Of a stretch of 64,000 nt of DNA, positions 4,150-62,915 are shown in pieces. The stretch is from Prorocentrum cordatum (taxonomy: Eukaryota), in the NCBI GenBank assembly GCA_963575745.1, contig CAUYUJ010000112.1, positions 1 to 64,000 of the forward strand, in the 5' to 3' direction. A program made the translations under genes and the position numbers. The first letter of the stretch is position 1, and each line of letters opens with the position of its first letter. The notes under the pieces were generated by a model. That model was given only the letters and a program-made list of their open reading frames with translations. It had not been told where the DNA came from and ran no database searches.

Positions 4150-5560
4150 TATGATTCTGGAGCGTAGAAGGTTGCAGCAGTTTCACGGATGGAGGGCGAG
4201 TCGTTTTCAAAGTGTGGCTTTCGCATTTGCTCCGCGCGCAATCGACATCAAAGCTTGCACGATGTTCATGGATGGAGGGCGGCTCTTTTTCAAAATGTGG
4301 TTCTCGCTGCAGCGCCGCGCACAATCGACATAACTTTTGGCAGGAGTTTTACGAATGGAGGGTGGCTCGTGTTCAAACTCTGGTTTTCGCTTCAGCGCTG
4401 TGCACAATCGACCTCAAACCTTGCAAGAGGTTCTCGGATGGGGGGTGACTCTTTTTCAAAATGTGGCTCTCGCTTTGGCGCCGCGCACGTTCGTCGTACA
4501 GTCGGCCTTGATTAGTAGGTCTACCCTGCCAAGTCAAGGGTACCCGTGTGTCCTGTCTTTAGTGGTCCGTGCCTTCCGCATTCCCAAGGTGCTGTAGCCC
4601 TCGGAAGGGTCGCGTGTCCTCTCGCGTGTCCTCGCCAATCGAGTCCGACTGTAAAATGTTGAAGGCGTTTCACGGAGTGAGTGCGGCTATGTTTTGTAAA
4701 TGTGGACTTCGCCCCAGCGCCGCGCACACGCGTTGCAAAAGCTTGTGCAGTACGAGCTTTACGACTGTGGCTTTTGCGTTGGCGCCGTGCACCGCCGGCA
4801 TCAGAAAGGATTGCAAGAGCTGCGCGGAGGGAGGGCGGTTCCTCTTCAACATGGCGTTCTCGCCTCCGCGCTGTGCACATTCGTGGTAAGAGTTTGTAAG
4901 GGCTTCGCGGATGGAGGGGGGCTCCTTTCCAGAAAGTTGTCCTCGCCAATATAGCGCCGCGCGCAGCCGTCATACTTGCTTGCAGGAGGTTCACAGGAGG
5001 AGGGTGGGCCCTTTTTCAACATGCGGTTCTCTCCCTAGCGTCGCGCGCATTCGTCTCACACGGTGGTAAGAGTTTCACGGATGGAGGGCGGCCCCTTTTT
5101 AAATAGTGGTTCTTCCTTGAGCTCCGCGCACATTCGCTTTCAACGTGCGCTAGATCTGCACGGATGGAGGGCGGCTCTTGTTCAAAGTTGGTTTTGGCTT
5201 CGGCGCCGCGCGCGTCCGTATTAGCGGGCTCTTCTGATGGACGTTCCAGAGGTGTTTTGACACGCAATAGGGTTGTCAGGGCGCACAGGACACGGGTATT
5301 CGCGGTGCTGAGTTCCCAGGGATGGTGTTCTGGCACGACGCATGATCCTCAGGACATAAGAGTTTAGTCGCGGCGTCGCTGCCCAAGGAGTGGTTCTTTT
5401 CGTTCGATTCGGGATTCTCAGACTTCTGTTGTCCAACGGGGCAACTCCAGCCGTGAAGCGAAAATCTTGCAGGGACCTTTGAAGAAGAACGTTGAAGGGA
5501 GGGTTATGTGCAATCGTTGATGCGTCTTGGGTTTACACTGGTCCCTCTCTTCCTCGTCCT
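4150..5560 (+). repeat. Degenerate 83-bp satellite array with a ~290-bp unique tail
   Basis: A GGATGGAGGGCG-like core recurs at ~4187, 4270, 4353, 4436, 4825, 4908, 4995, 5078 and 5161 (mostly 83-bp spacing). The tail 5271-5560 is homologous to the reverse complement of 8575-8875. Confidence 0.8.
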
Positions 5561-6387
5561 CCTTGTCCGAGGCTGTCTAATTCTTGGTCCTGAGCTTCCA
5601 TATTTACCATCAGCTCAAATCGGACCTGGCGCGGCGGCCTCAAAGTGCCACGCCATTTTACCATGACAAGATACGAGCTGCTGCATTCGCTGCCATGAGC
5701 TGCTAGTGCTCCGCAGTAGCGGAGACACCATCGTCCCAGCTACGTGCGCTCGTCCGGGGCTGTCTCTTGGGGTGCGAGCAGGAGCAGGACGACATTCCTG
5801 CCCCAGCCTCCGCCTCCCTGCCGCTCCTCTTGCTCTCCTCTCCTCCGGCGCCAGGGCGGACCATCTGGGCCTCGGCCACCAGGCACAGCGCCAGGGCCAG
5901 AGACCTTCCCGTTCCAGAGGCGGCCCGCTTGGGTCTGCCACTTCGTCTGTGCGCCAGGGCGAAGGATCGGCCGATTTTTCCGGCATGCTTGGGGTGCAAT
6001 CCCAGATCTCGGACGATGTCGTTTTTGGCCAACTGGCCGTTTTTGACCAATCTCGGCCTTCAGAGGCTGGTTTCGAGCCTTGGTGCCACCCAACACGGAT
6101 CCGGGACGAAAAAAAGCCGCCGGGAAGCGGTCGAGGCTTCTGGGGCCGCGGATTGAAATCAGCCCCGCGGGTGTCTGGTGGGGTTGGCGTGAATGCGCCG
6201 GGTCCGCCAGATTTGGCACCCCGCAGGGCCCCAGTTCATTGCAGTCCTGGCCCTCGCTTCCCCGAGCGCCTCCGACATCGAGCTTGCTCACAACGAGTTG
6301 CTGATCGCAGTGCGCGCCAAATGCGGCGCTTCGATGTCCCTGGGGCCTGAGCCCGGCTGACGGCCTTGTTCCGAGCGGCAGTCGTTC

Positions 6388-16289: not shown

Positions 16290-16368
16290 CCACACGCACA
16301 CGCACGCACGCACACACGCGCACACACTCACATGCACGCACACACACACACACACACACACGCGCGCA

Positions 16369-16400
<32 letters not shown>

Positions 16401-16472
16401 CGCACACACACACACGCACACACACACACTCACACGCACACACACACAAACACGCATGCACGAAGGCACGCA

Positions 16473-16504
<32 letters not shown>

Positions 16505-17343
16505 CACGCGCACACACGCACACACTTACACGCACACGCACGCACACGCACGCACGCACACATACACACACATACGCAAGCACACGCGCACACACACACA
16601 CACACGCACACACACACGCACACGCAACCACACACGCACTCACGCACGCACGCACACACGCACACTCATACACACACGCACGCACGCACTCACGCACACA
16701 CACACACACACGCACGCACACGCACACACACATACACGCACTCACGCGCACACACACACAACCACACAAACACAAACAGACACAAACACACAAACACACA
16801 AACACACAAACACACAAACATACAAACACACAAACACACAAACACACAAACACACAAACACACAAACGCACAAACCCACACACACAAACACACAAACGCA
16901 CACACAAACACACAAACACACAAACCCACCCACACAAACACACAGACGCACACACACAAACACACAAACCAAACACACAAACACACAAACACACAAACAC
17001 ACAACCACACAAACACACAAACACACAAACACACAAACACACAAACACACAACCACACAAACCCACAAACACACAAACACACAAACACACAAACACACAA
17101 ACACACAAACACACACACACAAACACACAAACACACACAAACACACAAACACACAAACCCACAAACACACACACCCACAAACACACAAACACACAAACAC
17201 ACAAACATACAAACACACAAACGTACAGACGCGCGCGCACACATGCACGCACGCATGCACGCTCACACGCAGATACACGCGCACACGCACACACACACAC
17301 GCACACACACGCGCACACGCACGCGCACACACACACATGCACG

Positions 17344-17374
<31 letters not shown>

Positions 17375-18022
17375 GAACACGCACACATACGCACACATGC
17401 ACGCATGCACGTACGCACGCACGCACGCATGCACGCACGCACGCACACACACACACACATTCGTACGCACGCACGCACAATCACGCATACATATACACAC
17501 AGGCACACACAGACACACCCAGACACACTCAGACACACACCGACAACACACACAGACATACACAGGCACACACAGACACACACAGGCACACACAGACACA
17601 CACAGACATACAGAGACACACGCACAGACACACACGGACACACACACACACAGACACACACAGAGACACACACACGCAGACACACACACACACACGCAGA
17701 CACACAGACACACGCACACGCACACACACACGCACATGCGCACACTGACACACGCACGTACACACGCGCACGCATGCACGCACGCACGCATGCATCCACA
17801 TACACAGACACACACACACACGCACATACACAAACGCACACACACACTCACACACTCACATACATATATATACACATATGTACACACTACACTACACTAC
17901 ACTGCGCTATACTACACTACACCACGCTACACTACACCATACTACACGACACTACACTACACTACGCTACGTTACACTACACTGCATTACACTTACACGC
18001 ACACTTACACACACACGCACAC
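16290..18022. repeat. 1.7-kb compound CA-rich microsatellite: (CA)n, (CACG)n, (CACACAAA)n, (CAGACA)n, (CACTA)n
   Basis: Directly visible; accounts for the HT/CV-rich pseudo-ORFs. Confidence 0.97.
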
Positions 18023-23277: not shown

Positions 23278-24369
23278 TTACAAGTGATGCGCAAAACTCC
23301 CCAGAGTGTGAAACGCCGATGCGCCGTCCGAGTTCCTAGCGCTTCGTAGGAGCTTGTCCTGGCCGGCCTTGAGGATCTTTTCCCAATCCTCGCTCTTCAG
23401 GTAGCCCTCCCACCCGGCCTCGTACTCAACCTTGAGGGCCCCTTCCTCCACGACCGCCGCCAGGACCTTTTCGTCCCCCATGTGCAGGGTGAAGGCCTCC
23501 TCGTCCACCCACATGGAAGACTTCACGAACCCCCACTGTGAAAGCATCCACTTCGCTCCGAAAAGAACCTGGCGTGCAACGCGCGTGCCTAGGGGCTGCT
23601 CTTCTTTGGCCCAAACACGTTTCCCGTCAGCTGTCTCATGTTTCAGGCTCCTGATCGTCGCAACCGCTGTGTCGCGATCTTCTTGTTTAGGGAATTCTGC
23701 GAACAACAGCCCCTTGAACTCCCCTTTCACGAAGTAGTCAGAAGCTGGCGTAACATACCCCTCCCACAATCGATCTTTTATCCACTTGGATGCTGACCAC
23801 TCGTCCCCCATACTTTCCAAACCTCCAAAAACTGCAATCAACTTGGTGTCCTCGGTCCCATTCTTCATGAGGGCGCGCATCTGGGCCTCCAGCTGCACAA
23901 TTTGGTTCTGCAAGTCCTGCTGGAGTTTGCTGTCCTGCGGGTTCCCGCCCTTCCTCCCCCCTGGGCCCACGGACGCCGTGAAGGTCTGAAGATCGTCATT
24001 CACAGCCTGGATCTTGTTCATGAGGTCCTTGTTCTTCTCCTCCATCCCCTCCCACATATTGTCCATGTTCGACTCCACTCTTGCCACGTCGTCCTGGAGC
24101 TCCCGGACGGTGTCCAAGACTGGCCGGATACGTTCATCAAACTTCTTGTCCAAGAGCTCCGCGATAGCACTGAGGGTGACAGGCTGTTGAGCTGCATCCG
24201 GAGGTGTAGAAGGAGTGGTAGCCGCTGGTCTCGTCTCCTCCTCGCCCTCGTCCCCGTCCATGGTGTGCAGCGGGCTGAACAGCCGCTGTCGAACGTCGCG
24301 TTCGCCTCGTAGGGGCGTGCCTGGCTGCCGCGTGTGAGGCCGGCTCCCGGCGCCGGCGCCGTCAGCCAT
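23278..24369 (-). CDS. LINE ORF1 (coiled-coil plus possible RRM-like region), ~363 aa
   Basis: Intact ORF directly upstream of ORF2 and inside the TSD. Heptad-rich segment VRELQDDVARVESNMDNM...LQNQIVQLEAQMRAL; KGLLFAEF resembles RNP1. Confidence 0.8.
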   Translation of the reverse strand: MADGAGAGSRPHTRQPGTPLRGERDVRQRLFSPLHTMDGDEGEEETRPAATTPSTPPDAAQQPVTLSAIAELLDKKFDERIRPVLDTVRELQDDVARVESNMDNMWEGMEEKNKDLMNKIQAVNDDLQTFTASVGPGGRKGGNPQDSKLQQDLQNQIVQLEAQMRALMKNGTEDTKLIAVFGGLESMGDEWSASKWIKDRLWEGYVTPASDYFVKGEFKGLLFAEFPKQEDRDTAVATIRSLKHETADGKRVWAKEEQPLGTRVARQVLFGAKWMLSQWGFVKSSMWVDEEAFTLHMGDEKVLAAVVEEGALKVEYEAGWEGYLKSEDWEKILKAGQDKLLRSARNSDGASAFHTLGSFAHHL

Positions 24370-24491: not shown

Positions 24492-24689
24492 CCCCCCCCG
24501 CCTGATCAAAAGGCCGCCCCCCCTCTCTGCACCCCCCTACGCGCGCCACTGACACCGGCATCACCCGAGCATGCTGCTTATGCTATGTTTGCGTCGCCCC
24601 CCCCCCCCCCCCAGGGAGCGACTCGCGCTCTCTCAGAAGTCTAATCATATGTGCGCAAGCTTGGGCCACGCACAGTGCACCTCTGGTAA

Positions 24690-43446: not shown

Positions 43447-44997
43447 TTACCTAACAGCGAAGACTGATAGGATTCTGGTAGGGTCAAAAGAGAGCATCAT
43501 GACTCCTCAGGGGGGTCTGGGCGGAACCCGGACAGAATCCGGCGGCTGCCGTCGGAGCCCAAATCGCTTGGGACATCCTTGCAAAATCGCTTTTGGCGCT
43601 CCCAGAACGCCATTCCCGGGCTACATTTTGGATGCCCGGAGCCAACGTAGGCCACTTCGTGCTCTTGGACTTCCCAGAACACCATTCCCGGGCCACATTT
43701 TGAATGCCCGGAGCCAATTGTAGGCCACTTCGTGGTCTTCGAGGTCCCAGAATTCCTTTCCTGGGCATGATTTTGAATGCTCGGAGCCAACTGTAGGCCA
43801 CTTCGTGGTCTTCGAGGTCCCAGAATTCCTTTCCTGGGCATGATTTTGAATGCTCGGAGCCAACTGTAGGCCACTTCGTGGTTTTCGAATTCCCAGAATT
43901 CCATTCCTGGGCATGATTTTGAATGCTCGGAGCCAACTGCAGGCCACTTCGTGGTCTTCGAGTTCCCAGAATTCCATTCCTGCGCATGATTTTGAATGTC
44001 CGGAGCCAACTGTAGGCCGAGGCTGAAGGCAGACTGAGGCTGAGGCTGAAGCAGGCAGAGGCTGAAGGCTGAGGCTGAGGCTGAAGCAGGCTGAGGCTGA
44101 GGCAGGCTGAGGCTGAGGCTGAGGCTGATGCAGGCTGAGGCTGAGGCAGGCTGAGGCTGAGGCCGAGGCTGAAGGCAGACTGAGGCTGAGGCTGAAGCAG
44201 GCTGAGGCTGAGGCTGAGGCAGGCTGAGGCTGAGGCTGAGGCAGGCTGATGCTGAGGCAGGCTGAGGCTGAGGCTGAGGCTGATGCAGGCTGAGGCTGAG
44301 GCAGGCTGAGGCTGAGGCCGAGGCTGAAGGCAGACTGAGGCTGAGGCTGAAGCAGGCTGAGGCTGAGGCTGAGAGGCAGGCTGAGGCTGAGGCAGGCTGA
44401 GGCTGAGGCCGAGGCTGAAGGCAGACTGAGGCTGAGGCTGAAGCAGGCTGAGGCTGAGGCTGAGGCTGAGGCTGAGGCTGAGGCTGAGGCTGAGGCAGGC
44501 TGATGCTGAGGCAGGCTGAGGCTGAGGCTGAGGCTGATGCAGGCTGAGGCTGAGGCAGGCTGAGGCTGAGGCCGAGGCTGAAGGCAGACTGAGGCTGAGG
44601 CTGAAGCAGGCTGAGGCTGAGGCTGAGGCAGGCTGAGGCTGAGGCTGAGGCAGGCTGATGCTGAGGCAGGCTGAGGCTGAGGCTGAGGCTGATGCAGGCT
44701 GAGGCTGAGGCAGGCTGAGGCTGAGGCCGAGGCTGAAGGCAGACTGAGGCTGAGGCTGAAGCAGGCTGAGGCTGAGGCTGAGGCAGGCTGAGGCTGAGGC
44801 AGGCTGAGGCTGAGGCTGAGGCAGGCTGAGGCTGAGGCTGTGACTGCGACTGCACTTGCCACTGCGACTGTCATCGCGAATGCGACTGCGACTGCGAGAA
44901 CAGCAGAATTCTACAACTGGATTATCATCTGAATCTTGAGGGGAATGCTTCCAGATATGCTCCTACACATCGCTGTTAGGTTGCTTTGCCGGGATAA
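43447..44997 (+). mobile_element. Composite satellite-carrying element, copy A
   Basis: Head TTACCTAACAGCGAAGACTGATAGG, 73-bp tandem array, (GCTGAG)n-derived array, conserved tail ending TCGCTGTTAGGTTGCTTTGCCGGGATAA. Confidence 0.85.
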
Positions 44998-45997: not shown

Positions 45998-47733
45998 TTA
46001 CCTAACTGACGACTGATAGGTTTCTAGTAGTGTCAAAACTGAGCATCTTGACTCCCCAGGGGGGTCTGGGCGGGTGCCGGAGAGAAGCCGCGGAAGTCGT
46101 TTTAAGCAAACAATTACACACTTCGTAGTATTTGAGGTCCCAGAACTCCACTCCCGGGCCACATTCTCAATGGCCGGAGCCAACTGTAGGCCACTTCGTG
46201 GTCTTCGAATTCCCAGAACTCCATTCCCGGGCCACATTTTGAATGCCCGGAGCCAACTGTAGGCCACTTCGTGGTCTTCGAGTTCCCCGAACCCCATTCC
46301 TGGGCATGATTCTGAATGCCCGGAACTTCGTGGTCTTCGAGTTCCCAGAATTCCAATCCTGGGCATGATTTTGAATGCCCAGGGCCAACTGTAGGCCACT
46401 TCGTGTTCTTCGAGTTCCCAGAATTCCATTCCCGGGCCACATTTTGAATGCTGAGGCAGGCTGATGCTGAGACTGAGGCAGGCTGAGGCTGAGGCAGGCC
46501 GAGGCTGAGGCCGAGGCTCAAGGCAGACTGAGGCTGAGGCTGAGGTGAGACTGAGGCTGAGGCTGAGCTGAGGCTGAGGCTGTGAGGAGGCTGAGGAGGC
46601 TGAGTGCTGGAGGCTGAGGCAGGCTGAGGCAGGCTGAGGCTGAGCCGAGGCTGAAGATGAGGCTGAGGCTGAGGCTGAGGCTGAGGCTGAGGCAGGCTGA
46701 GGCTGAGGCTGAGGCAGGCTGAGACTGATGCAGGCTGAGGCTGAGGCTGAGGCTGATGCAGGCTGAGGCTGAGGCAGGCTGAGGCTGAGGCCGAGGCTGA
46801 AGGCAGATTGAGGCTGAGGCTGAGGCAGGCAGGCTGATGCTGAGGCAGAGGCAGGCTGAGGCTGAGGCTGAGGCTGATGCAGGCTGAGGCTGAGGCAGGC
46901 TGAGGCTGAGGCAGGCTGAAGGCAGACTGAGGCCGAGGCTGAAGCAGAGGCTGAGGCTGAGGCAGGCTGAGGCTGAGGCTGAGGCTGAGGCTGAGGCAGG
47001 CTGAGGCTGAGGCAGGCTGAGGCTGAGGCTGAGGCTGAAGCAGGCTGAGGCTGAGGCTGAGGCTGAGGCTGAGGCTGAGGGCTGAGCTGAGGCAGGCTGA
47101 GGCTGAGGCTGAGGCTGATGCAGGCTGAGGCTGAGGCAGGCTGAGGCTGAGGCTGAGGCCGAGGCTGAAGGCAGACTGAGGCTGAGGCTGAAGCAGGCTG
47201 AGGCTGAGGCTGAGGCTGAGGCTGAGGCAGGCTCTGAGGCAGGCTGAGGCTGAGGCTGAGGCATGCAGGCTGAGGCTGAGGCAGGCGAGGCTGAGGCCGA
47301 GGCTGAAGGCAGACTGAGGCTGAGGCTGAAGGCAGGCTGAGGCTGAGGCTGAGGCAGGCTGAGGCTGAGGCAGGCTGAGGCTGAGGCTGAGGCCGAGGCA
47401 GGCTGAGGCTGAGGCTGAGGCTGAGGCTGAGGCTGAGGCTGCGGGCAGACTGAGGCTGAGCTGAAGGCAGGCTGAGGCTGAGGCAGGCTGAGGCAGGCTG
47501 AGGCTGAGGCATGAGGCTGAGGCTGAGGCTGAGGCTGAGGCTGAGGCAGGCTGAGGCTGAGGCAGGCTGAGGCTGAGGCTGAGGCTGATGCAGGCCACTG
47601 CGACTGTCATCGCGAATGCGACTACGACTGCGAGAACAGCAGAATTCTACAACTAAATTCTCATCTGAATCTTAAGGGGAATGCTTCCAGATATGCTCCT
47701 ACACATCGCTGTTAGGTTGCTTTGCCGGGATAA
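45998..47733 (+). mobile_element. Composite satellite-carrying element, copy B
   Basis: Same head, arrays and tail as copy A. Confidence 0.85.
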
Positions 47734-47875: not shown

Positions 47876-48557
47876 CCCCCACCCACCCACCCCTCCCTTG
47901 AGCCAGCACCCCCTGCTTCGTTTCCCCTCATTTCGTCGGCCCTCCCCTGAGAGTCGAGTTTGCGATCAAGTTCGCAGCATCGCAGAACTTCACGACTGGA
48001 GCCCTAATTGGGCCTCATCTTTCTGCGACATTGTTCGAAACTGGGCGAAAGCGCCCAGCCTAAACACAGTGCAACGCCCAGATCTCAGGGTCCTTTCAGC
48101 CAGGGCTGTACAAGACCCCCTGGGGCTTTCCAATGGGGCTCCACATCGCTCCGCCTCGCCTCGCCCTGGCTCGAGCCACGCAGCCCGAGCGACTGCCCTG
48201 GATTCGTGGGGCGGCGGGGAGCCAGCTGAAGTCGGTGCTCAGAGAGAGGCGTTCCAAGAGACTCCCTGGGCCGCCCGCTCGGGCAGGCTCCCAGCCACGT
48301 TCTTTGAGCACTGCCATCGTCCTTTCAGCGGGCACGGTGCGGAACGCAGACTGTTGTGCTTCCCCTTTCCCTCCTGTGCTCCAGCTCTTGCGCCTCCCTC
48401 CCTTCTGCTCCTGCTGCTGGTGTTGCTCCTCCTCCTCCTCCTCCTCCTCCTCCTCCTCCTCCTGGTCCCCCCGCTTCTCCTCCTGCTTCCGCTGGTGCTC
48501 CACCTCCTTCGCCGTTTCCTCTTTCTTCTGGTGCTGCTGCTCCTCCCTCTCTTCTCC

Positions 48558-48600
<43 letters not shown>

Positions 48601-48636
48601 CCTCCCCCTTCCCCGCTTCCTGCTGCTGCTGCTGCT

Positions 48637-48676
<40 letters not shown>

Positions 48677-48704
48677 GTGGTGGTGGTGCTGCTGCTGCTG
48701 CTGG

Positions 48705-48739
<35 letters not shown>

Positions 48740-48849
48740 CTCCTCCTCCTCCTCCTCCCTCCTCCTCCTCCTCCTCCTCCTCCTCCTCCTCCTCCCCCTT
48801 CCGCTCTCCTCCTGCTTCTGCTCCTCCTCTTTACCCTCCCCCGCTTCCT

Positions 48850-49234
48850 GCTGCTTGTTGGTAGACCAGACATGCATTTTCACCACATCTGCTAGCACCC
48901 GGCCACCTTTGGAGTGTGCCACTGGGGTTTACGCCATCACCGCTTGGTGCTAAATGGGCTGCAGCACGCATGGCATTTGCGCACTATTCCTCTGAGCAGA
49001 TCCACGCTAGCAAGAGTATGACTCCGGCTACTTTCGGGAACGTTGTTAACATGACGCCAAGCTTAGCAACAGCAAGGCAAAAGTTGAGAGAAAGAGAGAT
49101 GAGATAGAGGACCCAAGACGCAAGAGAAACGAGAAGTGAGCTGAGCAAGTTATGGTACAACGTGAGATTTACATGCAGGACGGGTGTGCAATCAACTCTC
49201 TCACAGAAAGCTGCTTCTACTGCGGCTGCTGCTG
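48850..49234 (-). repeat. 3' direct terminal repeat (pseudo-LTR) of the PLE
   Basis: About 14 substitutions relative to 54038-54422 by manual count; no TG...CA ends. Confidence 0.92.
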
Positions 49235-49467
49235 TACCCGCCACAACAACCGCAGCAGCTTGAAGGGCTACACAACATAGTCCAAGGGCTGCGGCGAGAC
49301 TTGCGTATCCTCGTAGCAGTGTGATCCGCTCGACCCCCATCGAGCAGACATCGAGGAGTAGGATTCCTGGTAGGAGAACGACCAGGCACGTTATCTTATT
49401 CACTCGGCGCAACGTCATGGTTGGCGATTTTGATCTTGTAGTGCTGTATTCTTGTTAGGTTTATCTT

Positions 49468-50470
49468 CTAGGCCATGGCGCCACAGCCCTTGCCAGTAAC
49501 GAACTGGATGAGCTGCTCGATTTTCCTCGCTTTGGTCTTCCCGATGGACGTGCTCAAGTTGTTTTTCTTCAAGATCGTGTCCAACTTCGCCTGCGTTGTT
49601 TCCTCGGCCAGGCGCGAAATGAAGCCGGCACTTTCTTGCGGCCAGCCCTCCAATGAAGTGTCGGGGCAGACGACTTTGGCTACGTACTTCAGTGCTTTTG
49701 CTTCCGTGTGTTCCGCCTCCTCGGGCTCCTCATCCTGGCTGGGGACGGCCAAGGTACGCAGGCCCTGCTGGCCACCCGATGGCGTGGCACGACGGTCGCT
49801 CCCACTTGCCCCTGACCTGGCCAGGCCTGCGTTCTCGACGAAATCACCCAAGATGTCATCGAGGCTCTTCTTCGTGGTGCCGTGTTTGGCTGCGACGACC
49901 TCTTTGAGCCTCTCGACGAACTCCTCTTCCGTGTACTTGCGGGCTCCGCCAGGCGGGTTCCCCATCCTAGTCTGCAGGGATTTCACCCACTTGATGACCT
50001 CATCTTCGGGGGGGGGGGGTCTGCTTCTGCATGATCTTGCGGAGCATCTGCTTCATGAGGCCAGATCCGGCGTGGTCGCTGTCCGAATCCTCGTCAGACT
50101 CCGACTCCTCAGACATGGCAAGCCTCTTCGCCATCCTCAAGAAGCGGAAAGGTGCACGCTTGCCGTCACGCTGGCTCCTCCTCCCTTTCTCATCATGCTT
50201 GCTCTTGATCCCCAGGAGCTTGCGCACAGCTGCCTCCGCACCTGCCGTGATCTTTTTCACGAAGGACCGTTCTTGCTCCTCCATGACTGCAGCCTGTTCG
50301 TAGTCATACAGGCGGCGGTTCAAGTCATCGATGCCCGAGATCCCTCCAGCCATCCATAGAGGCTGCTGCGATCCATACGGCGTGTAGCCTATGGACTTGC
50401 CCTTGCCTTTGCCCTTGCCGTTGCCGTTGCCCCCCTGCCCGTACTGGTTGTAGCGGTTCCTAGACCCCAT
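49468..50470 (-). CDS. PLE accessory ORF (~333 aa; GK-rich N-terminus, acidic tract, SAP/HeH-like C-terminus) with one frameshift in a C12 run
   Basis: MGSRNRYNQYGQGGNGNGKGKGKGK...QKQTPPP joins EDEVIKWVKSLQ...AKLDTILKKNNLSTSIGKTKARKIEQL if the homopolymer at 50008-50019 is shortened by one base. Confidence 0.65.
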
Positions 50471-50576
50471 GGGACCGGCAATGGAGCAGCACCAGTGCAG
50501 GGGAGGAGAGTTCTGTACGCGGCGAGGGCCGAGATGGGCTGCAGGCACGATGGGCATAACGGTGCATGAAGAATAT

Positions 50577-53462
50577 TTAGGCTGCTCGGCAGATCCATGC
50601 ATATGTCTCATGGAGAACACGGTGTGTGAGCGCGTAATGTTGAGATCCATCCGCATGCAGAAAGTCCCCCAAACCCTCTCGATGTAGTCCTTGCAGGATT
50701 CGGCCGAAAACCTTGACGACAGCCAAGAATTCTGAGCGATGCTTCCGAGGGATGCTGCGACACGTCTGTGCAAGCCATTGCGGGGGCCACTGCAAGCGCA
50801 ATATCTCACAAACAAGGTCCACGAAAACATCTTGAGCACGGCACGGATCCCATTCGGCCACACTGTTGTGACTGAGAACTCGTTCCAAAACCAAGGGACG
50901 CACATGGTGAAATGAGAGTGTGGCAGACGAGGAGGGGTAATGAGGAAATTTTGCCAACTGGGGTTGGTCTGCCTGTCCACGGGCAAATTCTGCGTTAGGG
51001 AAGAATGGGCACACCTCGTACGATAAGCCTGTCGGCCGGATGTGCGCCTGGAGGTATGTGAGATGGAGGCCCCGACCTTCCACCGTGACCCCGACGTCCG
51101 GGGGCCAGAGCATGCGCACAGCACGTTCAAGGCAACTCTCACAAAAAACCATGCTAAACACGAGACTGTCGTCGACATATAAGATGCCTTGGATGAGCTC
51201 TGCTGTCGAAAACCCCGGGCATGCAAGACCGATGGAGGCACTATACCCTGCTTCCGTGTATAAGCGATGGACGTTCTCTCCAAGGTCGCCCAAGGTGGTG
51301 GACTCAGACATGCTGCCACCCATGGCCACCCCCGCTTACGGCAGAATATGTCTTTGCCCATCATAAAATGGATATCCTTGGAAGCGAACTTGAGAGCCCT
51401 GCGAATATCAGCGAATGTGTATACATCATGATCAGAGGGAACGCGATCTCCACTACGACATAAGAAACCTTTTGCCTTCGAACCCCGTTTGACTGCCACT
51501 GCTGTTTTTCCATGCCGTTTGAAGGCCCGGTCCAGGAACAACGAACACCGACGGACACCACGATCGACGTCAGCATCTTTAAAAATCTGACTGGCGTCAC
51601 ATTTAAGCCAAGATATACACGACTTCGGATTTCCATAAAGGCACCGAAACGTAAATTGGCCATTGGTGCGAAGACGACGGACACGCTCCGCCAACACTTT
51701 CGGTAGGAGACGGGGTTCCCAGAGCGACCAAGAAATATCTCCAGAATGCTGGTTGGCCAAACGTAGCGCTCGGGCAGCCTTCCAGAGGAATCTGCGCTGA
51801 GTGTTCTTGCAATTGGCGACGATCTCCTCGTGGTGTGCATGCGCGCGTGTACACGTGAGTGCGCCACTCGTGCGATCAAGGCACTTGCCTTTGATGGTAA
51901 GGTACGCGTGCGGAAGATGATGTACATGTGTAATTTCGGGGTTCTGGTGCTTTTTGGGGATGTATTTGTCGACCAGTTTTTGAAGACGCCGGGCAACTCC
52001 TTTAGCATGTAGGTGCGGGCAGTGCTCGTAGTGTACGGCGTCTTCGCAAAGCCACTCCCATAGTTTCCAGAAATAGCAACTACGGGGTATGCATACACGT
52101 CTGTGTGGGTCCTTATCCAAAGGTATGAATACATGGTGGGGTAGGGATTCTCGTATATGGCATGCGTGCAGCTCCAGACCAGTAACACAAGGTACATGAG
52201 ATGCGTACCTGTCGCCCCAATGCTCGAATAACCAATGTGCCTTGACGCACCCCGGCAGTTGTAGGTTCGAATGGTATGAGGCAAGCTGCTGGCAAAAATC
52301 GAAGAAGACGAAGGAGAGAGGCAGCGTGGCAGGAACATCCCAGTGCTGATCCAGCCAAACAACGTCATGTGCCAGGATATGCTGGCACCGAGGGTCATGT
52401 AGCAGATATTGACAAACTGTGTGGGAGAAATCTCGACATACTTGCCGCTGTTGTGTAACATGATCAGAAACTTTAGGAGGTCGTACACACAATATTTTTG
52501 TCATTGCACGCAGGTAGAGAGCAATATTGGGAGAACGAATGTTTTGACACACCCAATATACGTATTGTCTAAGCGTGCGACGACAATGTTGTACGAACAC
52601 GTGTGAGGTATCCGGCAATCTGAACAGTTTGATGCTCGACGGGATAATGTTCCCCGACGGCATGAATCGTTCATTTCTTCTTGCGATGACAGCACGTTCA
52701 TACGTCAGGCGTGAGCAGAGAATCCAGACAGATAGGATATATTCGACCAACCAACCATGACGCCATGCGGTATGATAGCGCAGGCGGGTGTGCCGCTCCC
52801 CCAAGTACGTTGCCAGCCAGAGCTCGTAGCCTCTGCGGTAGAGACGCTGCACCACTTCATCTCTGGAAAGATCGTAGCGCTGACGAGCCCAACCCAGCAA
52901 GGCAGCAAACGAGGTATCAATAGACGGGAGACGGCTCCGCATCGCCTGGTCTTCCCGTAGACGGCATATCAAATTGAGTCGAGACTCGTCTGCGAGGGTG
53001 GGATGCGTCCGGAACCTCGGGAACGGGCGTGGTTCCGGACCCTGCCCTCGCTGAGTTGGTCCTGTTCCGCATTGGGTTGGGGGCCGCAGTACTCTAATTG
53101 CCAAGGCCTCGTACTGGGCAGTTCTCGCCTCAGTGCTGAAGACCATGGGTACGAGAACGAACGACCAGGACGAAGACGAACGCCAGGAACGATACCGCGG
53201 GCGTCCAGCTTGGTTTCCTTTCCCGTTGAAGGTGGCCTGGAAATGCTCCCAAAAACGACCTTGCAGCCCAGAACGCACCGTGCGATTGCGCGGATGAGTG
53301 CACTTAGCACGCCCCACATACCAGGTTCCAGACTCCCAGGAGAATGCTGAGTAGCATAATGCTGCATGCGGTTGGGAGGCAGGGTCCCAGACCAAACGAA
53401 CCATTTCAGTAAGATACCGAAGCCCACACTCCCCTCGAAAGTCAGATCGTAGAACGCACATT
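50577..53462 (-). CDS. PLE GIY-YIG endonuclease-reverse transcriptase ORF (one frameshift at ~51330; start uncertain, open frame extends to 53692)
   Basis: GIY-YIG: CYSAF...WYVGRA...GRFWEH...YEALAIRVLRPPTQ. RT: IPLDKD, LPHAYLTIKGK, KCDASQIF, RKRG/AMGGSMS, LYVDDSL, LTYLQ. Confidence 0.82.
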
Positions 53463-54037
53463 TGGAAATTAGGCGTAGCACATCGAAGAAGTACTCGCGT
53501 CCAGTGTTTTCGCTCGTGCTGTTTCGAAATCCATTCACATGCGATAAGGATGCCGATAAAGACCAGGAGGGACAGAACAGCTTGTGATTCACGTTTGTGT
53601 TGCTGCCACGATGTGAGGGTGCACCTAATATTAACTGCTTTTTGGAACCAGTGTTGATCACGTATTGCACGCGTGCTCCATTTAAACACCACTATGCCAA
53701 TCTTACGCGGTGTGGTGGTCGTATCTGATGTAGGTGTGATACTACAATACTGACAGAGACCGGATAGAAGAGCGTGTTCAGATAGACACTGCAGAGCATG
53801 TAGAGGTAGGTGGCGGGGTAGGGAGGGAAAGACTTATCGCACACGACGTGACTGGGCTTCCATGCCTGCCATGTGAGGAAAGCCAGGGGGTAACTGCACA
53901 GGGGGAAAATAAAGAAGCAGACGAGCTTGGGTACAGAGTCAGTGTAGATGAAGAACAACTGGATGATGGTGAAGATGGGGGTGTAGTACTGATAGTAATG
54001 TATACTCCCACGCCAACAATATGGAACTGTGAAAAGC

Positions 54038-54422
54038 GCTGCTTGTTGGTAGACGAGACATGCATTTTCACCACATCTGCTAGCACCCGGCCACCTTTGG
54101 AGTGTGCCACTGGGGTTTACGCCATCACCGCTTGGTGCTAAATGGGCTGCAGCACGCATGGCATTTGCGCACTATTCCTCTGAGCAGATCCACGCTAGCA
54201 AGAGCATGACTCCAGCTATTTTCGGGAACGTTGTCAAAATGGCGCCAAGCTTAGCAACAACAAGGCAAAAGCTGAGAGAAAGAGAGATGAGACAGAGGAC
54301 CCAAGACGCAAGAGAAACGAGAAGTGAGCTGAGCAAAGTATGGTACAACGTGAGATTTACATGCAGGACGCGTGTGCAATCAACTCTCTCACAGAAAGCT
54401 GTTTCTACTGCGGCTGCTGCTG
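54038..54422 (-). repeat. 5' direct terminal repeat (pseudo-LTR) of the PLE
   Basis: Matches 48850-49234 at a constant offset of 5188. Confidence 0.92.
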
Positions 54423-54639
54423 CTGCTCCTTCTCCCCCCTCCTCTTCCTGGCGCTCGCAGAGGTGAAAAGGAATCCGGGTATCGAGAGGGGAGTTGACCT
54501 GGGACGGGAGGGCATGCCGAAGCATCAGTAAGGTGCATTTGGTTTGCTCGGGTCCCATTCTTCCTCCTCCCCTTACAGTCTCCGCCGTTCGCTCCGCCCC
54601 CATTTGCCATACTGCTGTTGCTTCTCTGGCTTCTCTTTT

Positions 54640-55215
54640 ACCTCCCTTCTCCATCCTCCTGCCTCTGCTGCTGCTCATCCAGCTCCTCTCCCTTCCTTCT
54701 CCTCCTCCGTTTCTTCCTCTTTCTACCTCCTCCTCCTCCTTCTGTATTCTGCCTCTTCCTTCCTATCCTCCTTTTCCTCATCCTCCTTCCTCCTCCGTCC
54801 TCCCTCCTCCCTCCTCCCTTCTGCCACCTCCCGCCTCCTCCTCCTCCTCCTCCTCCTCCTCTTCCTCCTCCTCCTCCTCCTCCTCCTCTTCCTCCTGCCT
54901 CCTCCTCCTCCTCCTCCTCCTCCTCCTTCTGTTCCTCCTCCTTCCTCCTCCTCCTCCTCCTCCTCCTCCTCCTTCTGTTCCTCCTCCTCCTCCTCCTCCT
55001 CTCCTAAACGTCACGAGATACGCATTCAAGGACGGGAGAGCCCGTGTGCCCCGCCCGACTCGTCAAGGTTACGCGTACCCTCTAAGGCATAAGCAATACA
55101 CGACAATCCTCCTCTTCCTCCTCCTCCTCCTCCTCCTCCTCCTCCTCCTCCTCCTCCTCCACTCTCGTCTTCTCCTCCCGCCCTTCCTCATCTGCCTCCT
55201 CTGTCTCCTCAACCT
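54640..55215. repeat. (CCT)n-rich tract
   Basis: Directly visible. Confidence 0.93.
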
Positions 55216-56959
55216 CGTCTTACCCTCGTCTTATCCTCTTCTCCCTCGCCCCTCTCGACCCTCCGCTGTCCCTGGCCGCGGCCCGCTTCGCTCCCCGGGT
55301 CGGCCAGGTGGCCAGCGAGACCGTGCAGACGTGCAGCGTCAGTGCTTGCGGAGGAGATCCGGGGAAGCGCGGCATTGTCGGACCGCCTCAAGAAGCTCGG
55401 ATGCAACTCCTGGGAGGTCAAATTCTGACTGTGCCCTGGTCCGAAATCCGGCCTGATCTGGCTTACTCCCGCTGATTCTGGCCTAATCCCGCTTAGTCCC
55501 GTTTCATCCTGTTTAATCCCGCTTAGTCCGCGACCTGATCTAGCGTAACAGCCCCCTAATGGGGATCAATGGGGATCGATCCTCCTTCATCCTTCCGACG
55601 AAGACCTCCCAGCAGCTGCCTCCGAACATACGGTAGGTTCGCGTCGCGTCGACTGGCGGCGACCCCGCCGAGGACGTTCAACGTTGAACGTCGCCAGCGA
55701 CCCCGAATCGGTCGATGTTGACCGTCACGGGGAGCGGCCGATCGTTCAAGGTTGAACGACCCCCGCGGTGTCAGGAACCAGCGCCAACGTCGGCACGACG
55801 CGAACCTGCCGTACCCAGACCTGGGGCGGATTTGCTTTTCCAATCTCGGCGTTGTTCCTCGACGTTGGCCTCCAAGGGGCTGGCTTCGGGCCCCGGGGCC
55901 CTCGGAAACGGATCCAGGAGGGAAACGCTGCCCTGGGGAAGTGGCCGAGACCGCTCTGGGGCCGCGCATCGGAAGCCACATCGTCGGATGTCGGGGTGCG
56001 TGGCGCATTTCTGAAAGAGCCTCGCCGTCGAGGGCTCGAGAAGTTCACCTCTCTTCCTCAGCGTGGACTGGCCGACGTAAAGCGGGGGCGGCTCCGTCCG
56101 CGGAAGGTCGGAGCGAGGTCGGCGGAAGCTGGCGGCAGTAAACGTCCGCCTCCCGCAGAGATGTTATGTTTTTTGGGGGGGCGATTCAGGATTGCAGAGT
56201 CGGGCATGTCCATGTCCACTGCGGAGTGGTGCCCAGGGACCTCGAGAGCCTCTCGAGGACCTGGCGGAGGTGAACGCGGGGCAAGTGCGGGGGGCGATTG
56301 GGGTGCCGGAAAGTGGCCCTCAGGGGGCCGTAACGGGTGTCCACCTCGAGGAAGCGCAAGCATTCATTACGGCGCTTGGATTCCATACAGAGTCGGCGCA
56401 CTCCGTCGCCAGATCAGGCGGTGTGGGCCTCACATTTCGAGGGGTACCTTCCCCGATCCGTGAAACTGGCGGCCACGCGCCAGATTCACAGATCCGTAGT
56501 CCATATTTGCGTGCGCCCAATCAATCGCCACGGTGGCCCCGAAAGGTGCTGGAAAGGTGCGCCTTGTCCTCCCTTGTTTATTCCCTCTACCCCGTCCAGC
56601 TGGTAGGAGTGGTGGGTATTGGCATCTGCCAGCCCCTTAGGGTGGTAAGGTGTCCATCGCCACCTTTCCTGAATGGATCCAGGGCAGGACATCCAGCAGC
56701 TGTGGATGTGGATGACCACCTAGCAGTGCAGTCATGGGATGCTTGCTGTAGATATCATGGAGCTCTTAGATTCAAGTTTTTTTCGATGGCGTTCCTTAAA
56801 GTTTCCGGAAGCCCTCCGCAGTTTTCGGAGTCTTCGGAAGTTTTGGGAGGGTGGTCGTTCTTGATGTCGCCGCCTCCGTCGCCGCCATCCTCGTGGTCGC
56901 AGTTGTAGTCGTGGTGGTCGTCTTTGGCGACGTCGAAGGAGAAAGGGGAATGACGAGGG

Positions 56960-59450: not shown

Positions 59451-62400
59451 TTACCTAACAGCGAAGACTGATAGGTTTCTAGTGGTGTCAAAAGAGAGCA
59501 TCATGACTCCTCAGGGGGGTCGGGGCGGGACCCGGGGAGGCTGCCGCCGAAGCCGAAATCGCTTGGGACATCCTCGCAAAATCGCTCTTGGTGCTCCCAG
59601 AACTCCATTCCCGGGCCACATTTTGGATGCCCGGAGCCAACTGTAGGCCACTTCGTGCTCTTCGACTTCCCAGAACTCCATTCCCGGGCCACATTTTGGA
59701 TGCCCGGAGCCAACTGTAGGCCACTTCGTGCTCTTCGATTTCCCAGAACTCCATTCCCGGGCCACATTTTGGATGCCCGGAGCCAACTGTAGGCCACTTC
59801 GTGCTCTTCAAGTTCCAGAACTCCATTCCTGGGCATGATTTTGAATGCCCGAGCCAATGTCAGGCCACTTCGGTTCTGTCTAGTTTCCGGGAATTCCAGT
59901 CCTGGGCCACATTTTGAAATGCTGAGGCAAATTTGAAATGCTGAGGCAGGCTCGATGCTGTGGCCGAGAGCGGCTGAGGCTGAGGCAGGGCTGTGGCTGG
60001 GCTGAGCGAGGCTGAAGGCAGACTGAGGCTGAGGCTGAAGCAGGCTGAGGCTGAGGCTGAGGCAGGCTGAGGCTGAGGCTGAGGCAGGCTGATGCTGAGG
60101 CAGGCTGAGGCTGAGGCTGAGGCTGATGCAGGCTGAGGCTGAGGCAGCCTGAGGCTGACGCCGAGGCTGAAGGCAGACTGAGGCTGAGGCTGAAGCAGGC
60201 TGAGGCTGAGGCTGAGTCAGGCTGAGGCTGAGGCTGAGGCAGGCTGAGGCTGAGGCAGGCTGAGGTTGAGGCTGTGACTGCGACTGCCGTTGCCGCTGCG
60301 AATGTCATCGCGAATGCGACTACGACTTCGAGAACAGCAGAATTCTACAACTGGATTTTAACCTAACAGCTCTTGTATGGTGGTTTCTAGTGGTCTCAAA
60401 AGAAGAGAGCATCCGACTCCTCAGGGGGGTCTGGGGGACCCCGGGGAAGGCGTGGCGTGGCCGCCCCCGGCCGACGAAGCGAAATCCGCGCCTATGGGAA
60501 TACCTCCGCAAAATCGCTCCTTGGGTGCGCTCCCCAACTGTAGGCACTTCGTGCTCTTCGATTTCCCAGAACTCCATTCCCGGGCCACATTTTGGATGCC
60601 CGGAGCCAACTGTAGGCCACTTCGTGTTCTTCAAGTTCCCAGAACTCCATTCCTGGGCATGATTTTGAATGCCCGGAGCCAACTGTAGGCCACTTCGTGT
60701 TCTTCTAGTTCCCAGAACTTCACTCCTGGGCCACATTTTGAATGCTGAGGCAGGCTGATGCTGCGGCCGAGGCAGGCTGAGGCTGAGGCAAGGCTGAGGC
60801 TGAGGCCGAGGCTCGAAGACACAGACTGAGGGCTGAGGCTGAAGCAGGCTGAGGCTGAGGCTGAGGCTGAGGCAGAGCTGCCCCTCCGATCCTCCAGATC
60901 CCTCAACTGATCAACATCGCTCCTCAGGTGCACACTGCCAGATGCAGCGCTGAGATAACAAGCACTGGGCTGCGCCCGTTCCGCGTTCCCACTGAGGATG
61001 GGGATCTCACCCCCCATGGGTTGTGGAGCGGGGGGGAATTGGAGGCAGAAGCATTTTGAGGCAGGGGGGGCTGCCCTGTTCCTGGGATGGGCACGCCCCC
61101 CGCTGCCCTGTCCTCTCCTTGATCCTTTCTATAGAACGCAGAATTCGACCCCCTGCATATGATAATCGACTGCTCATGACCCAGAGATGCTCCTACACAT
61201 GGCTGTTAGGTTGCTTTGCCGGGATAATTTTACTAACAGCGAAGACTGATAGGTTTCTAGTGGTCTCAAAAGAGAGCAGCAGATGACTCCACAGGGGGGT
61301 CTGGGCGGGTGCCGGACAGGGTGCCGCAGAAGTCATTTTAAGCCAACAGTCACACACTTCGTGCTCTTCGACTTCCCAGAACTCCATTCCCGGGCCACAT
61401 TTTGATGCCCGGAGCCAACTGTTGGCCACTTCGTGCTCTTCGACTTCCCAGAACTCCATTCCCGGGCCACATTTTGGATGCCCGGAGCCAACTGTAGGCC
61501 ACTTCGTGGTCTTCGAGTTCCCAGAACTCCATTCCCGGGCCACATTTTGGATGCCCGGAGCCAACTGTAGGCCACTTCGTGCTCTTCGAGTTCCCAGAAC
61601 TCCATTCCCGGGCCACATTTTGAATGCCCGGAGCCAACTGTTTCGTGCTCTTCGAGTTCCAGAACTCCATTCCCGGGCCACATTTTGAATGCCCGGAGCC
61701 AACTGTAGGCCACTTCGTGTCTTCGAGTTCCCAGAACTCCATTCCCGGGCCACATTTTGAATGCCCGTAGCCAGCCGAGGCTGAGGCAGGCTGCTGCTGA
61801 GGCAGGCTGAGGCTGAGGCTGAGGCAGGCTGAGGCTGAGGCAGGCTGAGGCTGAGGCTGAGGTTGAGGCTGAGGCTGAGGCTGAAGCAGGCTGAGGCACA
61901 CGCTGAGGCAAGCTGATGCTGAGGCAGGCTGAGGCTGAGGCTGAGGCTGATGCAGGCTGAGGCTGAGGCTGAGGAAAAGGTTGAGGCTGAGGCTAAGGTT
62001 GAGGCTGAAGCTGAAGCAGGCTGAGGCTGAGGCTGAGGCAGGCTGAGGCTGAGGCTTAGGCAAGCTGATACTGAGGCAGACTGAGGCTGAGGCTGAGGCA
62101 GGCTGAGGCTGAGGCAGGCTGAGGCTGTGGCTGAGGCTGAGGCTTGAGGCTGAGGCTGAGGCTGAGGATGAGGCAGGTGAGGCAGACGCTGAGGCAGGCT
62201 GAGGCTGAGGCTGTGGCAGGCTGATGCTGAGGCAGGCTGGGCTGAGGCTGAGGCTGATGCAGGCTGAGGCTGAGGCAGGCTGAGGCTGAGGCCGAGGCTG
62301 AAGGCAGACTGAGGCTGAGGCTGAAGCAGGCTGAGGCTGAGGCTGAGGCAGGCTGAGGCTGAGGCAGGCTGATGCTGAGGCAGGCTGAGGCTGAGGCTGA

Positions 62401-62915
62401 GGCTGATGCAGGCTGAGGCTGAGGCAGGCTGAGGCTGAGGCCGAGGCTGAAGGCAGACTGAGGCTGAGGCTGAAGCAGGCTGAGGCTGAGGCTGAGGCAG
62501 GCTGAGGCTGAGGCAGGCTGAGCTGAGGAAAAGGTTGAGGCTGAGGCTGAGGCAGGCTGAGGCTGAGGCTGAGGCAGGCTGAGGCTGAGGCTGAGGCTGG
62601 GCTGAGGCAGGCTGAGGCTGAGGCCGAGGCTGACGCTGAGGCTGAGGATGCAGGCTGAGGCTGAGGCTGAGGCTGAAGGCTGAGGCTGTGGCTGAGGCTG
62701 AGGCTGAGGAGGCTGAGGCTGAGGCAGGCTGAGGCTGAGGCTGAGGCAGGCTGATACTGAGGCAGGCTGAGGCTGAGGCTGTGACTGTGACTGCCGTTGC
62801 CACTGCGACTGTCATCGCGAATGCGACTGCGACTGCGAGAACAGGAGAATTCTACAACTGGATTCTCATCTGGATCTTAAGGGGAATGTTTCCATATATG
62901 CTTCTACACATCGCT
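59451..62915 (+). mobile_element. Head-to-tail tandem of the composite element: copies C (59451-60357), D (60358-61227) and E (61230-62915)
   Basis: Heads at 59451, ~60360 and 61230. The D-E junction reads GCCGGGATAA-TTTT-ACTAACAGCGA. C and E lack the last part of the tail. Confidence 0.82.

Follow-up and report, generated by a model that had tools for sequence, protein, structure and literature searches.

Penelope-like elements (PLEs) form the sister group of telomerase reverse transcriptases (TERTs), and to our knowledge they are the only elements in which a GIY-YIG nuclease and a reverse transcriptase (RT) are encoded in one open reading frame (ORF). According to the survey by Craig et al. 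2021 (PMC8557442), the PLEs that carry the nuclease at the N terminus are Naiad and Chlamys, which share a CxC motif that lies between the nuclease and a motif of the form GxKF/Y, a DK(G) block, an insert between RT motifs A and B that resembles an IFD (insertion in fingers domain), and pseudo-long terminal repeats (pseudo-LTRs), and which mostly lack hammerhead ribozymes and tend toward insertion into microsatellites. Chlamys nucleases are described there as having neither CCHH nor CX2-5CxxC while retaining the R, H, E, and N residues, and the hosts given are green algae, spike mosses, and Physarum for Chlamys, and animals, the green lineage, and one slime mould for the N-terminal-nuclease PLEs known so far. 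In the present study, we analyzed a window of 64,000 nucleotides with a GC content of ~60% from the dinoflagellate Prorocentrum cordatum (positions 1–64,000 of contig CAUYUJ010000112.1, assembly GCA_963575745.1), in which positions 48850–54422, read on the minus strand, had been predicted from the letters alone to hold a PLE with its nuclease at the N terminus. The locus is probably a decayed retrotransposon insertion with the layout of an endonuclease-bearing (EN+) PLE whose nuclease is N-terminal, from a new and very divergent PLE clade; within our limited literature collection, no report of an N-terminal-nuclease PLE in dinoflagellates was found. The original prediction had taken N-terminal placement as the mark of Naiad, Chlamys, and Hydra alike, which agrees with Craig et al. 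for the first two, but Hydra is assigned there to an EN+ clade with a C-terminal nuclease.

The protein encoded by the locus belongs to a large family, none of whose members has been named. A phmmer search over 1.84 billion protein representatives gave 277 matches at E ≤ 1e-3, of which 135 reach E ≤ 1e-10 and 34 reach E ≤ 1e-30, with Logan, ENA, and JGI assemblies as sources and contigs of 0.7 kb to 314 kb; the best relative, P0001, matches with an E value of 7.3e-134 and 38% identity over 700 residues. All of the best 150 of these 277 matches fit the family hidden Markov model, and 18 of the same 150 have at least 1,000 amino acids and start ~150–200 residues ahead of the window's first Met. 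The family alignment comprises 181 rows, and the column numbers given below refer to it. The motifs on which the original prediction relied (CYSAF..WYVGRA, RFWEH, YEALAIR, LDKD, PHAYLTIKGK for the pattern P.AY...K.K, CDASQIF, G.AMGG, and YVDD) are all present, and nearly all of them fall on columns that are near-invariant in the 181 relatives, so they are not chance strings. All 16 matches of a search with the RT profile were family members, a search with a six-sequence alignment led to two metagenome loci (L001 and L002), and a word-indexed protein search with the N-terminal part of ORF1 gave no match. A tree of 23 near-full-length members (<90% identical) has long branches and deep diversity, with the window sister to P0001, and multiple near-identical copies occur per data set (the P0002, P0005, and P0010 clusters, with 5–10 members on different contigs). 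No relative was found in IMG/VR or among 185,579 prokaryote species genomes, relatives occur also on contigs of 133–314 kb, and the source of the family looks eukaryotic, to which the GC content of ~60% and a EukProt protein matching part of ORF2 (see below) add their weight. The GC content of the relatives' DNA differs, being ~60% in L001 and 45–48% in L002, which suggests that the family resides in several unrelated host genomes.

In intact relatives, the nuclease and the RT lie within one ORF of 1,100 amino acids, with the nuclease (columns 172–315) preceding the RT (columns 590–1085), and the same order can be read in the P. cordatum copy, where ORF1 amounts to ~1,090 codons made up of a 170-amino-acid N-terminal extension, the GIY-YIG nuclease, a 285-amino-acid linker, and the RT. 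ORF1 starts at 53872–53834 with an ATG at 53872–53870 (MAGMEAQSRRVR) and is closed by an in-frame TAA at 53836–53834, which is a premature stop at codon 13 because the codons past it align with the N termini of the relatives. The long minus-strand frame that had been noted before extends from 53833 to 50000 and covers 1,277 codons between its stops, but that length is misleading; the true ORF1 departs from it at the 51324/51323 junction. The N-terminal extension (53833–53387) is specific to the family, aligns with the first ~170 residues of the full-length relatives, conserves W92, R138, Q145, and L149, and has no match in Pfam. It is followed by the nuclease domain (53386–52964), recognized from hhalign, ESM features, and the family columns kept, with Y..WYVG, R..EH, E, and N but no CCHH zinc motif, and then by the linker of ~280 amino acids (52963–52124; columns 316–590), which opens with a conserved basic RP[WF]PR.R. 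The nuclease-to-RT spacer measures 285 family columns from N308 to D593, close to the roughly 300 residues noted before. The first part of the RT (52123–51324), delimited by the family alignment, hhalign, and comparison by eye, runs from the DK-type motif LDKD (52120–52109) through RT1 (AYLTIKGKC), RT2 (EEI, where the family has REI), the CxC insert (here C-L-Y), motif A (CDASQIF, with its Asp at 51598–51596), and an 89-amino-acid spacer to motif B as far as GWP. At 51324/51323, close to the ~51330 at which a frameshift had been placed before, the Pro codon of motif B (GWP|MGG) has lost one base, so that one frame reads ..RKRGWP and the other MGGSMSE, against a family consensus of R..GWPMGG..SEP. 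The second part of the RT (51323–50577; postbreak frame 51335–50580) holds the remainder of motif B, then motif C as YVDD (51179–51168), a CxxC, the D and E motifs, and a region resembling a thumb, and finishes with the stop at 50579–50577; it aligns over its full length with the RT C termini of 18 relatives and keeps D909, D910, C919, C922, E940, and N969. Unusually long alternative open frames were also seen, namely the 1,277 codons that run over the frameshift in the window and, in L001 (3–5243, plus strand), the frame of ORF2, which stays open for 1,746 codons through all of ORF1; they probably reflect a bias in codon composition.

This copy is dead and cannot encode the protein, as follows from the stop at codon 13, the loss of one nucleotide in motif B, an indel in the downstream ORF2, and changes at three near-invariant residues (R201 of the nuclease, here H; R689 of RT2, here E; and C753 of the CxC, here Y). 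At columns of at least 85% conservation, it deviates in 6 of the 81 that could be assessed. The ORF2 break lies in a run of C and could be an assembly error. Together with the 3.6% divergence of the flanking repeats, these lesions lend no support to the original view of a recently active element, and the copy is not young.

The predicted GIY-YIG domain at the N terminus was supported by profile comparison. When family columns 172–315 (59 rows) were aligned by hhalign with 13 bacterial PF01541 domains, a probability of 94.2% with an E value of 1.1e-7 was obtained over 75 columns, and the N-terminal 296 family columns as a whole gave 92.2%, while three other regions of the same proteins used as controls gave 0.1–0.2% and the linker matched neither the GIY-YIG nor the RT references (0.1–0.6%). 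An ESM-feature search, which serves as a lead only, returned a GIY-YIG cluster at the top (score 0.94, 157 shared features) and GIY-YIG in 8 of 30 matches. The conserved columns between 170 and 320 are Y182, W192, Y193, G195, R201, G210, R214, E217, H218, R234, Y235, W238, P250, E263, I267, Q275, R290, R296, E304, and N308; none of them is Cys, and hence neither CCHH nor CX2-5CxxC is present, while the R, H, E, and N residues are. The P. cordatum copy keeps Y182, Y193, G195, R214, H218, E263, and N308.

For the RT, two slices aligned by hhalign with 19 prokaryotic RVT_1 (PF00078) domains gave 61.5% and 58.9%, with E values of 8e-5 and 9e-5 over the 56 columns of motifs B–C, whereas control regions gave 0.1–0.6%. 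Motif A alone reached 16.9% (E 0.0015, 29 columns), and the RT without columns 791–834, which belong to the A-to-B insert and were cut post hoc, reached 81.2% with an E value of 1.2e-5 over the 104 columns of motifs A–C. With the nuclease at 94.2%, the RT at 59–81%, and the nearest ESM-feature clusters, the predicted arrangement stands, in which a single ORF has a GIY-YIG at its N terminus, followed by a long linker and an RT. The three Asp residues D767, D909, and D910 are 94–98% conserved and are kept in the window. The top ESM-feature clusters for the RT, again as a lead only, score 0.97 and come from Chlorophyta and Streptophyta, and the next ones, from nematodes and rotifers, carry HTH_animal, RVT_1, and DUF8422. 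Ahead of RT1 the family has a DK-like block, VP.D[KR]D..RR....Y..RL....D...Y (D593 97%, D595 88%), which by eye parallels the PLE block PADKG....Y..K.....D...Y; inspection of published alignments likewise places the RT1-like Y...K.K beside Y..PKIHK of PLEs and the RT2-like REI.S beside RPI.S, and by eye the family motif A, K.DA.QFF, when set against those of TERT and PLEs, most resembles that of TERT and the G-W-P-M-G of motif B resembles the G-I-P-M-G of Naiad and Chlamys. From the Asp of motif A (D746) to the Gly of motif B (G835), the window has 89 amino acids, compared in length only with ~61 in Penelope, ~84 in Naiad-Amil, ~105 in Chlamys-1_cRei, and ~118 in human TERT, as counted from Fig. 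S1 of Craig et al. Conserved Cys and His residues lie inside the RT (C671, C681, H685, H687, C751, C753, C919, and C922), which has C..C.K.HAH and CxxC motifs, and the inserts in the fingers may bind zinc.

The predicted 385-bp direct repeats were located at 54422–54038 and 49234–48850 and are 96.364% identical, differing at 14 of 385 positions. The downstream repeat is, by pairwise repeat comparison, the 3' end of the full-length copy, which spans 54037 to 48850 on the minus strand (5,188 nt) and begins with a 5' untranslated leader (54037–53873) that separates the upstream repeat from the in-frame ATG. The upstream repeat corresponds to the last 385 nt of the unit and contains no ORF1 sequence, which fits a 5'-truncated copy placed head-to-tail before the full copy, and it is thus read as a partial copy carrying only the 3' end of the element, that is, a pseudo-LTR. 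No third copy of the repeat exists within the 64-kb window. In the relative L001, the contig ends share a 238-nt repeat that is 98% identical and includes the ORF1 start codon, which fits tandem head-to-tail units of 5,947 nt better than LTRs; the evidence for pseudo-LTRs thus consists of one copy in the window and one relative. On its 3' side, the element is flanked by a (CTG)n/(CTC)n microsatellite (48849–48388; Tandem Repeats Finder [TRF] rows 48528–48738 and 48737–48829; repeat families D1–D3), which comes to within 21 nt of the element's end. In the 5'-side flank (54423–55241), the first ~27 nt are purine-rich on the sense strand of the element, and (CCT)n arrays, with TRF rows at 54645–55005 and 55107–55241, begin 222 nt past the 5' repeat. 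A microsatellite is a plausible insertion target in this single copy. No hammerhead ribozyme was found in 48300–55000 by an Rfam scan at E ≤ 1 (two weak, unrelated matches were returned), and no relic of the dinoflagellate spliced leader (DinoSL) was found in the window or the related loci.

Downstream of ORF1 lies ORF2 (50470–49468, ~330 amino acids), which is broken by the indel mentioned above in a run of 12 C (50019–50008). It runs from a Gly-rich part through a coiled-coil or acidic part, in which an F.FL.M motif lies, and a basic or Ser-rich part to a SAP-like C-terminal end, and it is colinear with the region after ORF1 in L001 and with the in-frame tails of L002, P0018, P0008/P0165, and P0170. 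In P0170, the final 30 residues score against Pfam SAP (E 2e-6; 27.7 bits against a cut-off of 23.9), and the tail of L002 matches SAP_new25 at E 0.019. With Pfam, SAP exceeded the cut-off in one of eight C-terminal ends, and the end of the window's own ORF2 and five others went undetected; a SAP-type DNA-binding end is therefore likely for the family, and the ORF2 of this copy would share it. A 79-amino-acid EukProt protein, P0024, is 100% identical to an internal piece of ORF2 (50340–50104, minus strand), meaning that a part of the transposon has been filed as a host protein. In the 3' region, a hydrophobic frame of 144 codons (49418–48984, minus strand) was considered as a candidate ORF3. 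Hydrophobic ORFs with several stretches resembling membrane spans follow ORF2 in all three loci (the window, L001 at 5243–5758, and L002 at 4401–4784), but they are not significantly similar to each other (E 4.4 and 0.44) and a word-indexed protein search with ORF3 found no homologue; the proposal of a conserved membrane protein was rejected for this lack of similarity, and the frame is not counted as a gene.

Chlamys is among the closest of the described systems. It shares with this element the N-terminal GIY-YIG without zinc motifs, what looks by eye like a DK-type motif whose third residue is not fixed, a long A-to-B gap at the position of the IFD, a G-x-P-M-G motif B, pseudo-LTRs, a length within 3.3–8.2 kb, the absence of a hammerhead in most families, and common accessory domains including a SAP in Chlamys-1_pPol; Chlamys also has a bias toward microsatellite targets, which would be a plausible target for the single copy here. 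Unlike Chlamys, the present family has no CxC or GxKF/Y between the nuclease and the DK block and instead has a CxC between RT2 and motif A; it has an extra N-terminal domain of 170 amino acids, a linker of ~285 amino acids, and C..C.K.HAH and CxxC inside the RT; its SAP ends the downstream ORF2 or tail and is not between RT7 and the thumb; it shows no similarity detectable with HMMER; and its host lies outside the green lineage and Amoebozoa. Naiad likewise has the nuclease before the RT, a motif B of the G-I-P-M-G type, pseudo-LTRs, no hammerhead, and an A-to-B distance of ~84 amino acids in Naiad-Amil against 89 here, but only Naiad has CCHH and CX2-5CxxC, the CxC motif, a KR-rich block, a single ORF in 3.4–4.4 kb, and a reach by BLAST to canonical PLEs, and its hosts are aquatic invertebrates. 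The C-terminal-nuclease groups (Penelope/Poseidon, Neptune, Nematis, and Hydra) resemble this element in the RT and GIY-YIG in one ORF, the DK block (by eye) before RT1, YVDD, and pseudo-LTRs, and differ in the position of the nuclease, the presence of hammerheads, and a short A-to-B gap (~61 amino acids). TERT shares a motif A of the form K-V-D-[VA]-[ST]-x-x-[YF] and a long insertion between motifs A and B, while the present element has no TEN or TRBD, carries a nuclease, is multicopy and flanked by repeats, and has M in motif B where TERT has Q; the family profile matched no TERT in PDB. Long interspersed nuclear elements (LINEs) combine an APE or RLE endonuclease with an RVT_1-type RT, and this element matched neither Exo_endo_phos nor RVT_1. 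A LINE-type retrotransposon does exist elsewhere in the window (24582–20712, minus strand); its ORF at 23396–20712 scores against RVT_1 (E 6.5e-32) and Exo_endo_phos (E 4e-11), neither of which the present element scores, and it is preceded by a coiled-coil-like ORF at 24582–23278.

Several observations weigh against the assignment to PLEs. Pfam RVT_1 or GIY-YIG matched none of the 18 full-length members (E ≤ 1), none of 19 RT-only members (E ≤ 10), and none of the window pieces, NCBIfam gave no match, and phmmer and hmmsearch against PDB returned no TERT or other RT at E ≤ 10, so that together with the profile search no sequence search ties the family to any described RT or PLE, whereas BLAST searches with Naiad RTs are reported in PMC8557442 to reach canonical PLEs. 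For the RT, hhalign gives moderate support, its best value being obtained after the post hoc removal of the insert, and RT1-2, the insert, and the thumb, each alone, gave 0.1% against RVT_1. The A-to-B comparison is one of length only, and the motifs were compared with Figs. S1, S4, and S7 of Craig et al. by eye. No CxC lies between the nuclease and the DK block, there being no Cys column of at least 85% conservation in columns 316–590, and no GxKF/Y motif was seen between the nuclease and the RT, while the family's own conserved C751-x-C753 stands 14 residues ahead of motif A, between RT2 and motif A. The proximity to microsatellites is weak evidence because tandem repeats make up 26% of the window, and no target-site duplication is discernible, the flank alignment score of 23 against a null mean of 25 being inseparable from low-complexity similarity. 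Because the diagnostic CxC motif was looked for and not found at its expected position, an assignment to Chlamys or Naiad is not established, and because the family is far from the described PLEs, it is best treated as a new clade.

The same observations raise the possibility that the family is a separate, undescribed class of retroelement in which a GIY-YIG nuclease was joined to a divergent RT independently of PLEs, so that it would work like a PLE without descending from one. The failure of Pfam, PDB, and NCBIfam to show sequence similarity with an RT family, the family's own N-terminal extension and 285-amino-acid linker, the Cys/His insertions in the RT fingers (C671, C681, H685, H687, C751, and C753), the ORF2 with its SAP, and the missing CxC and GxKF/Y at the PLE positions all speak for such a class. 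We nevertheless consider it unlikely, since the colinear DK block, RT1, RT2, P-M-G of motif B, and spacer of IFD length are closer to PLEs and TERTs than to the RTs of LINEs, LTR elements, or group II introns, the nearest ESM-feature clusters are RTs of the green lineage and of rotifers and nematodes with HTH_animal and RVT_1, and the union of GIY-YIG and RT in one ORF is, as far as we know, confined to PLEs. Less probable still is that the locus derives from a small virus-like or episomal element that is reverse-transcribed, has become endogenous, and has three ORFs (a polymerase, a basic nucleic-acid-binding protein, and a membrane protein) and terminal redundancy. Such an element would account for the compact units of 5.2–5.9 kb, the 238-nt overlap of the L001 contig ends, as in a circle or concatemer, the many relatives on contigs of 4.5–7 kb, and the hydrophobic multispan ORF after ORF2 in all three loci, but that overlap is 98% and not 100% identical, the three hydrophobic ORFs are dissimilar and without homologues, IMG/VR contains no family member, relatives sit on contigs of 133–314 kb, no capsid-like or RNase H domain was found, and a GIY-YIG nuclease points to chromosomal integration via nicking.

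Two further explanations seem very improbable, each about as remote as the other. The two direct repeats of equal length around the coding region could be true LTRs of an LTR or DIRS-type retrotransposon; neither an integrase, a protease, RNase H, a tyrosine recombinase, nor an APE domain was found by Pfam and NCBIfam in the window pieces or the 18 full-length relatives, however, and the repeats start with CAGCAG and end with AAGCAGC rather than having TG..CA, no target duplication is visible, and the repeated ends of L001 contain the start of ORF1. The locus could also be a host gene or a domesticated RT instead of a mobile element, as the EukProt gene model identical to part of ORF2 might suggest, but the locus is broken by one stop and two frame breaks, direct repeats flank it, and near-identical copies of the family lie on different contigs of the same data set. 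With these alternatives considered, the decayed insertion of a divergent PLE with an N-terminal nuclease remains the probable explanation of the locus.

If the element is such a PLE, a mechanism can be proposed by analogy with that group. Its RNA would be translated into the protein of ~1,090 amino acids, whose GIY-YIG domain would nick chromosomal DNA, apparently in or beside a (GAG/CAG)n microsatellite in this case, and the RT might then extend the freed 3'-OH and copy the element RNA in place by target-primed reverse transcription. Template switching, or read-through onto a second RNA, could give rise to a partial tandem like the one observed here. The Gly-rich, basic, SAP-ended ORF2 product, which is fused to ORF1 in some relatives, is probably a nucleic-acid binder that might aid targeting or the assembly of a ribonucleoprotein. 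According to Frangieh et al. 2024 (PMC11167929), a PLE of the green anole cleaves DNA and starts reverse transcription inside its own RNA in vitro.

The window contains other repetitive features. A composite repeat occurs five times (43600–44840, 46119–47588, 59595–60274, 60534–60877, and 61355–62781), each time as a 73-bp sequence in 3–6 tandem units with an extended (GGCTGA)n array directly behind them, and may be a satellite or a nonautonomous element. A (CA)n-type array of 1.6 kb at 16291–17864 has a strong strand skew, with a GC skew of −0.55 and an AT skew of +0.71, and a GC-rich tandem array at 1932–2938 has nested periods of 12, 24, 72, and 355 nt (ACGCCGGCACCG-like) and several open frames.

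At the level of the locus, 5.6 kb of P. cordatum DNA is accounted for as dead mobile DNA, and at the level of annotation, Pfam is silent on at least 277 protein clusters, which constitutes a blind spot. A broader proposal, to which we would give about an even chance, is that the family is a deep-branching, undescribed PLE superfamily of protists, in which a GIY-YIG at the N terminus is combined with an N-terminal domain private to the family, RT fingers whose inserts probably bind zinc, a motif A like that of TERT, an insert of IFD length, and a SAP-ended accessory module present as ORF2 or as a C-terminal tail. If that is true, an RT and a nuclease that Pfam does not see would cause the family to be missed or misannotated as host genes. 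The taxonomic range of N-terminal-nuclease PLEs would become broader than described so far with a further, much more divergent clade from another lineage of protists, and the family would provide a second data point for a TERT-like insert between motifs A and B. Its position in the RT tree could inform the relations among PLEs, their nucleases, and telomerase.

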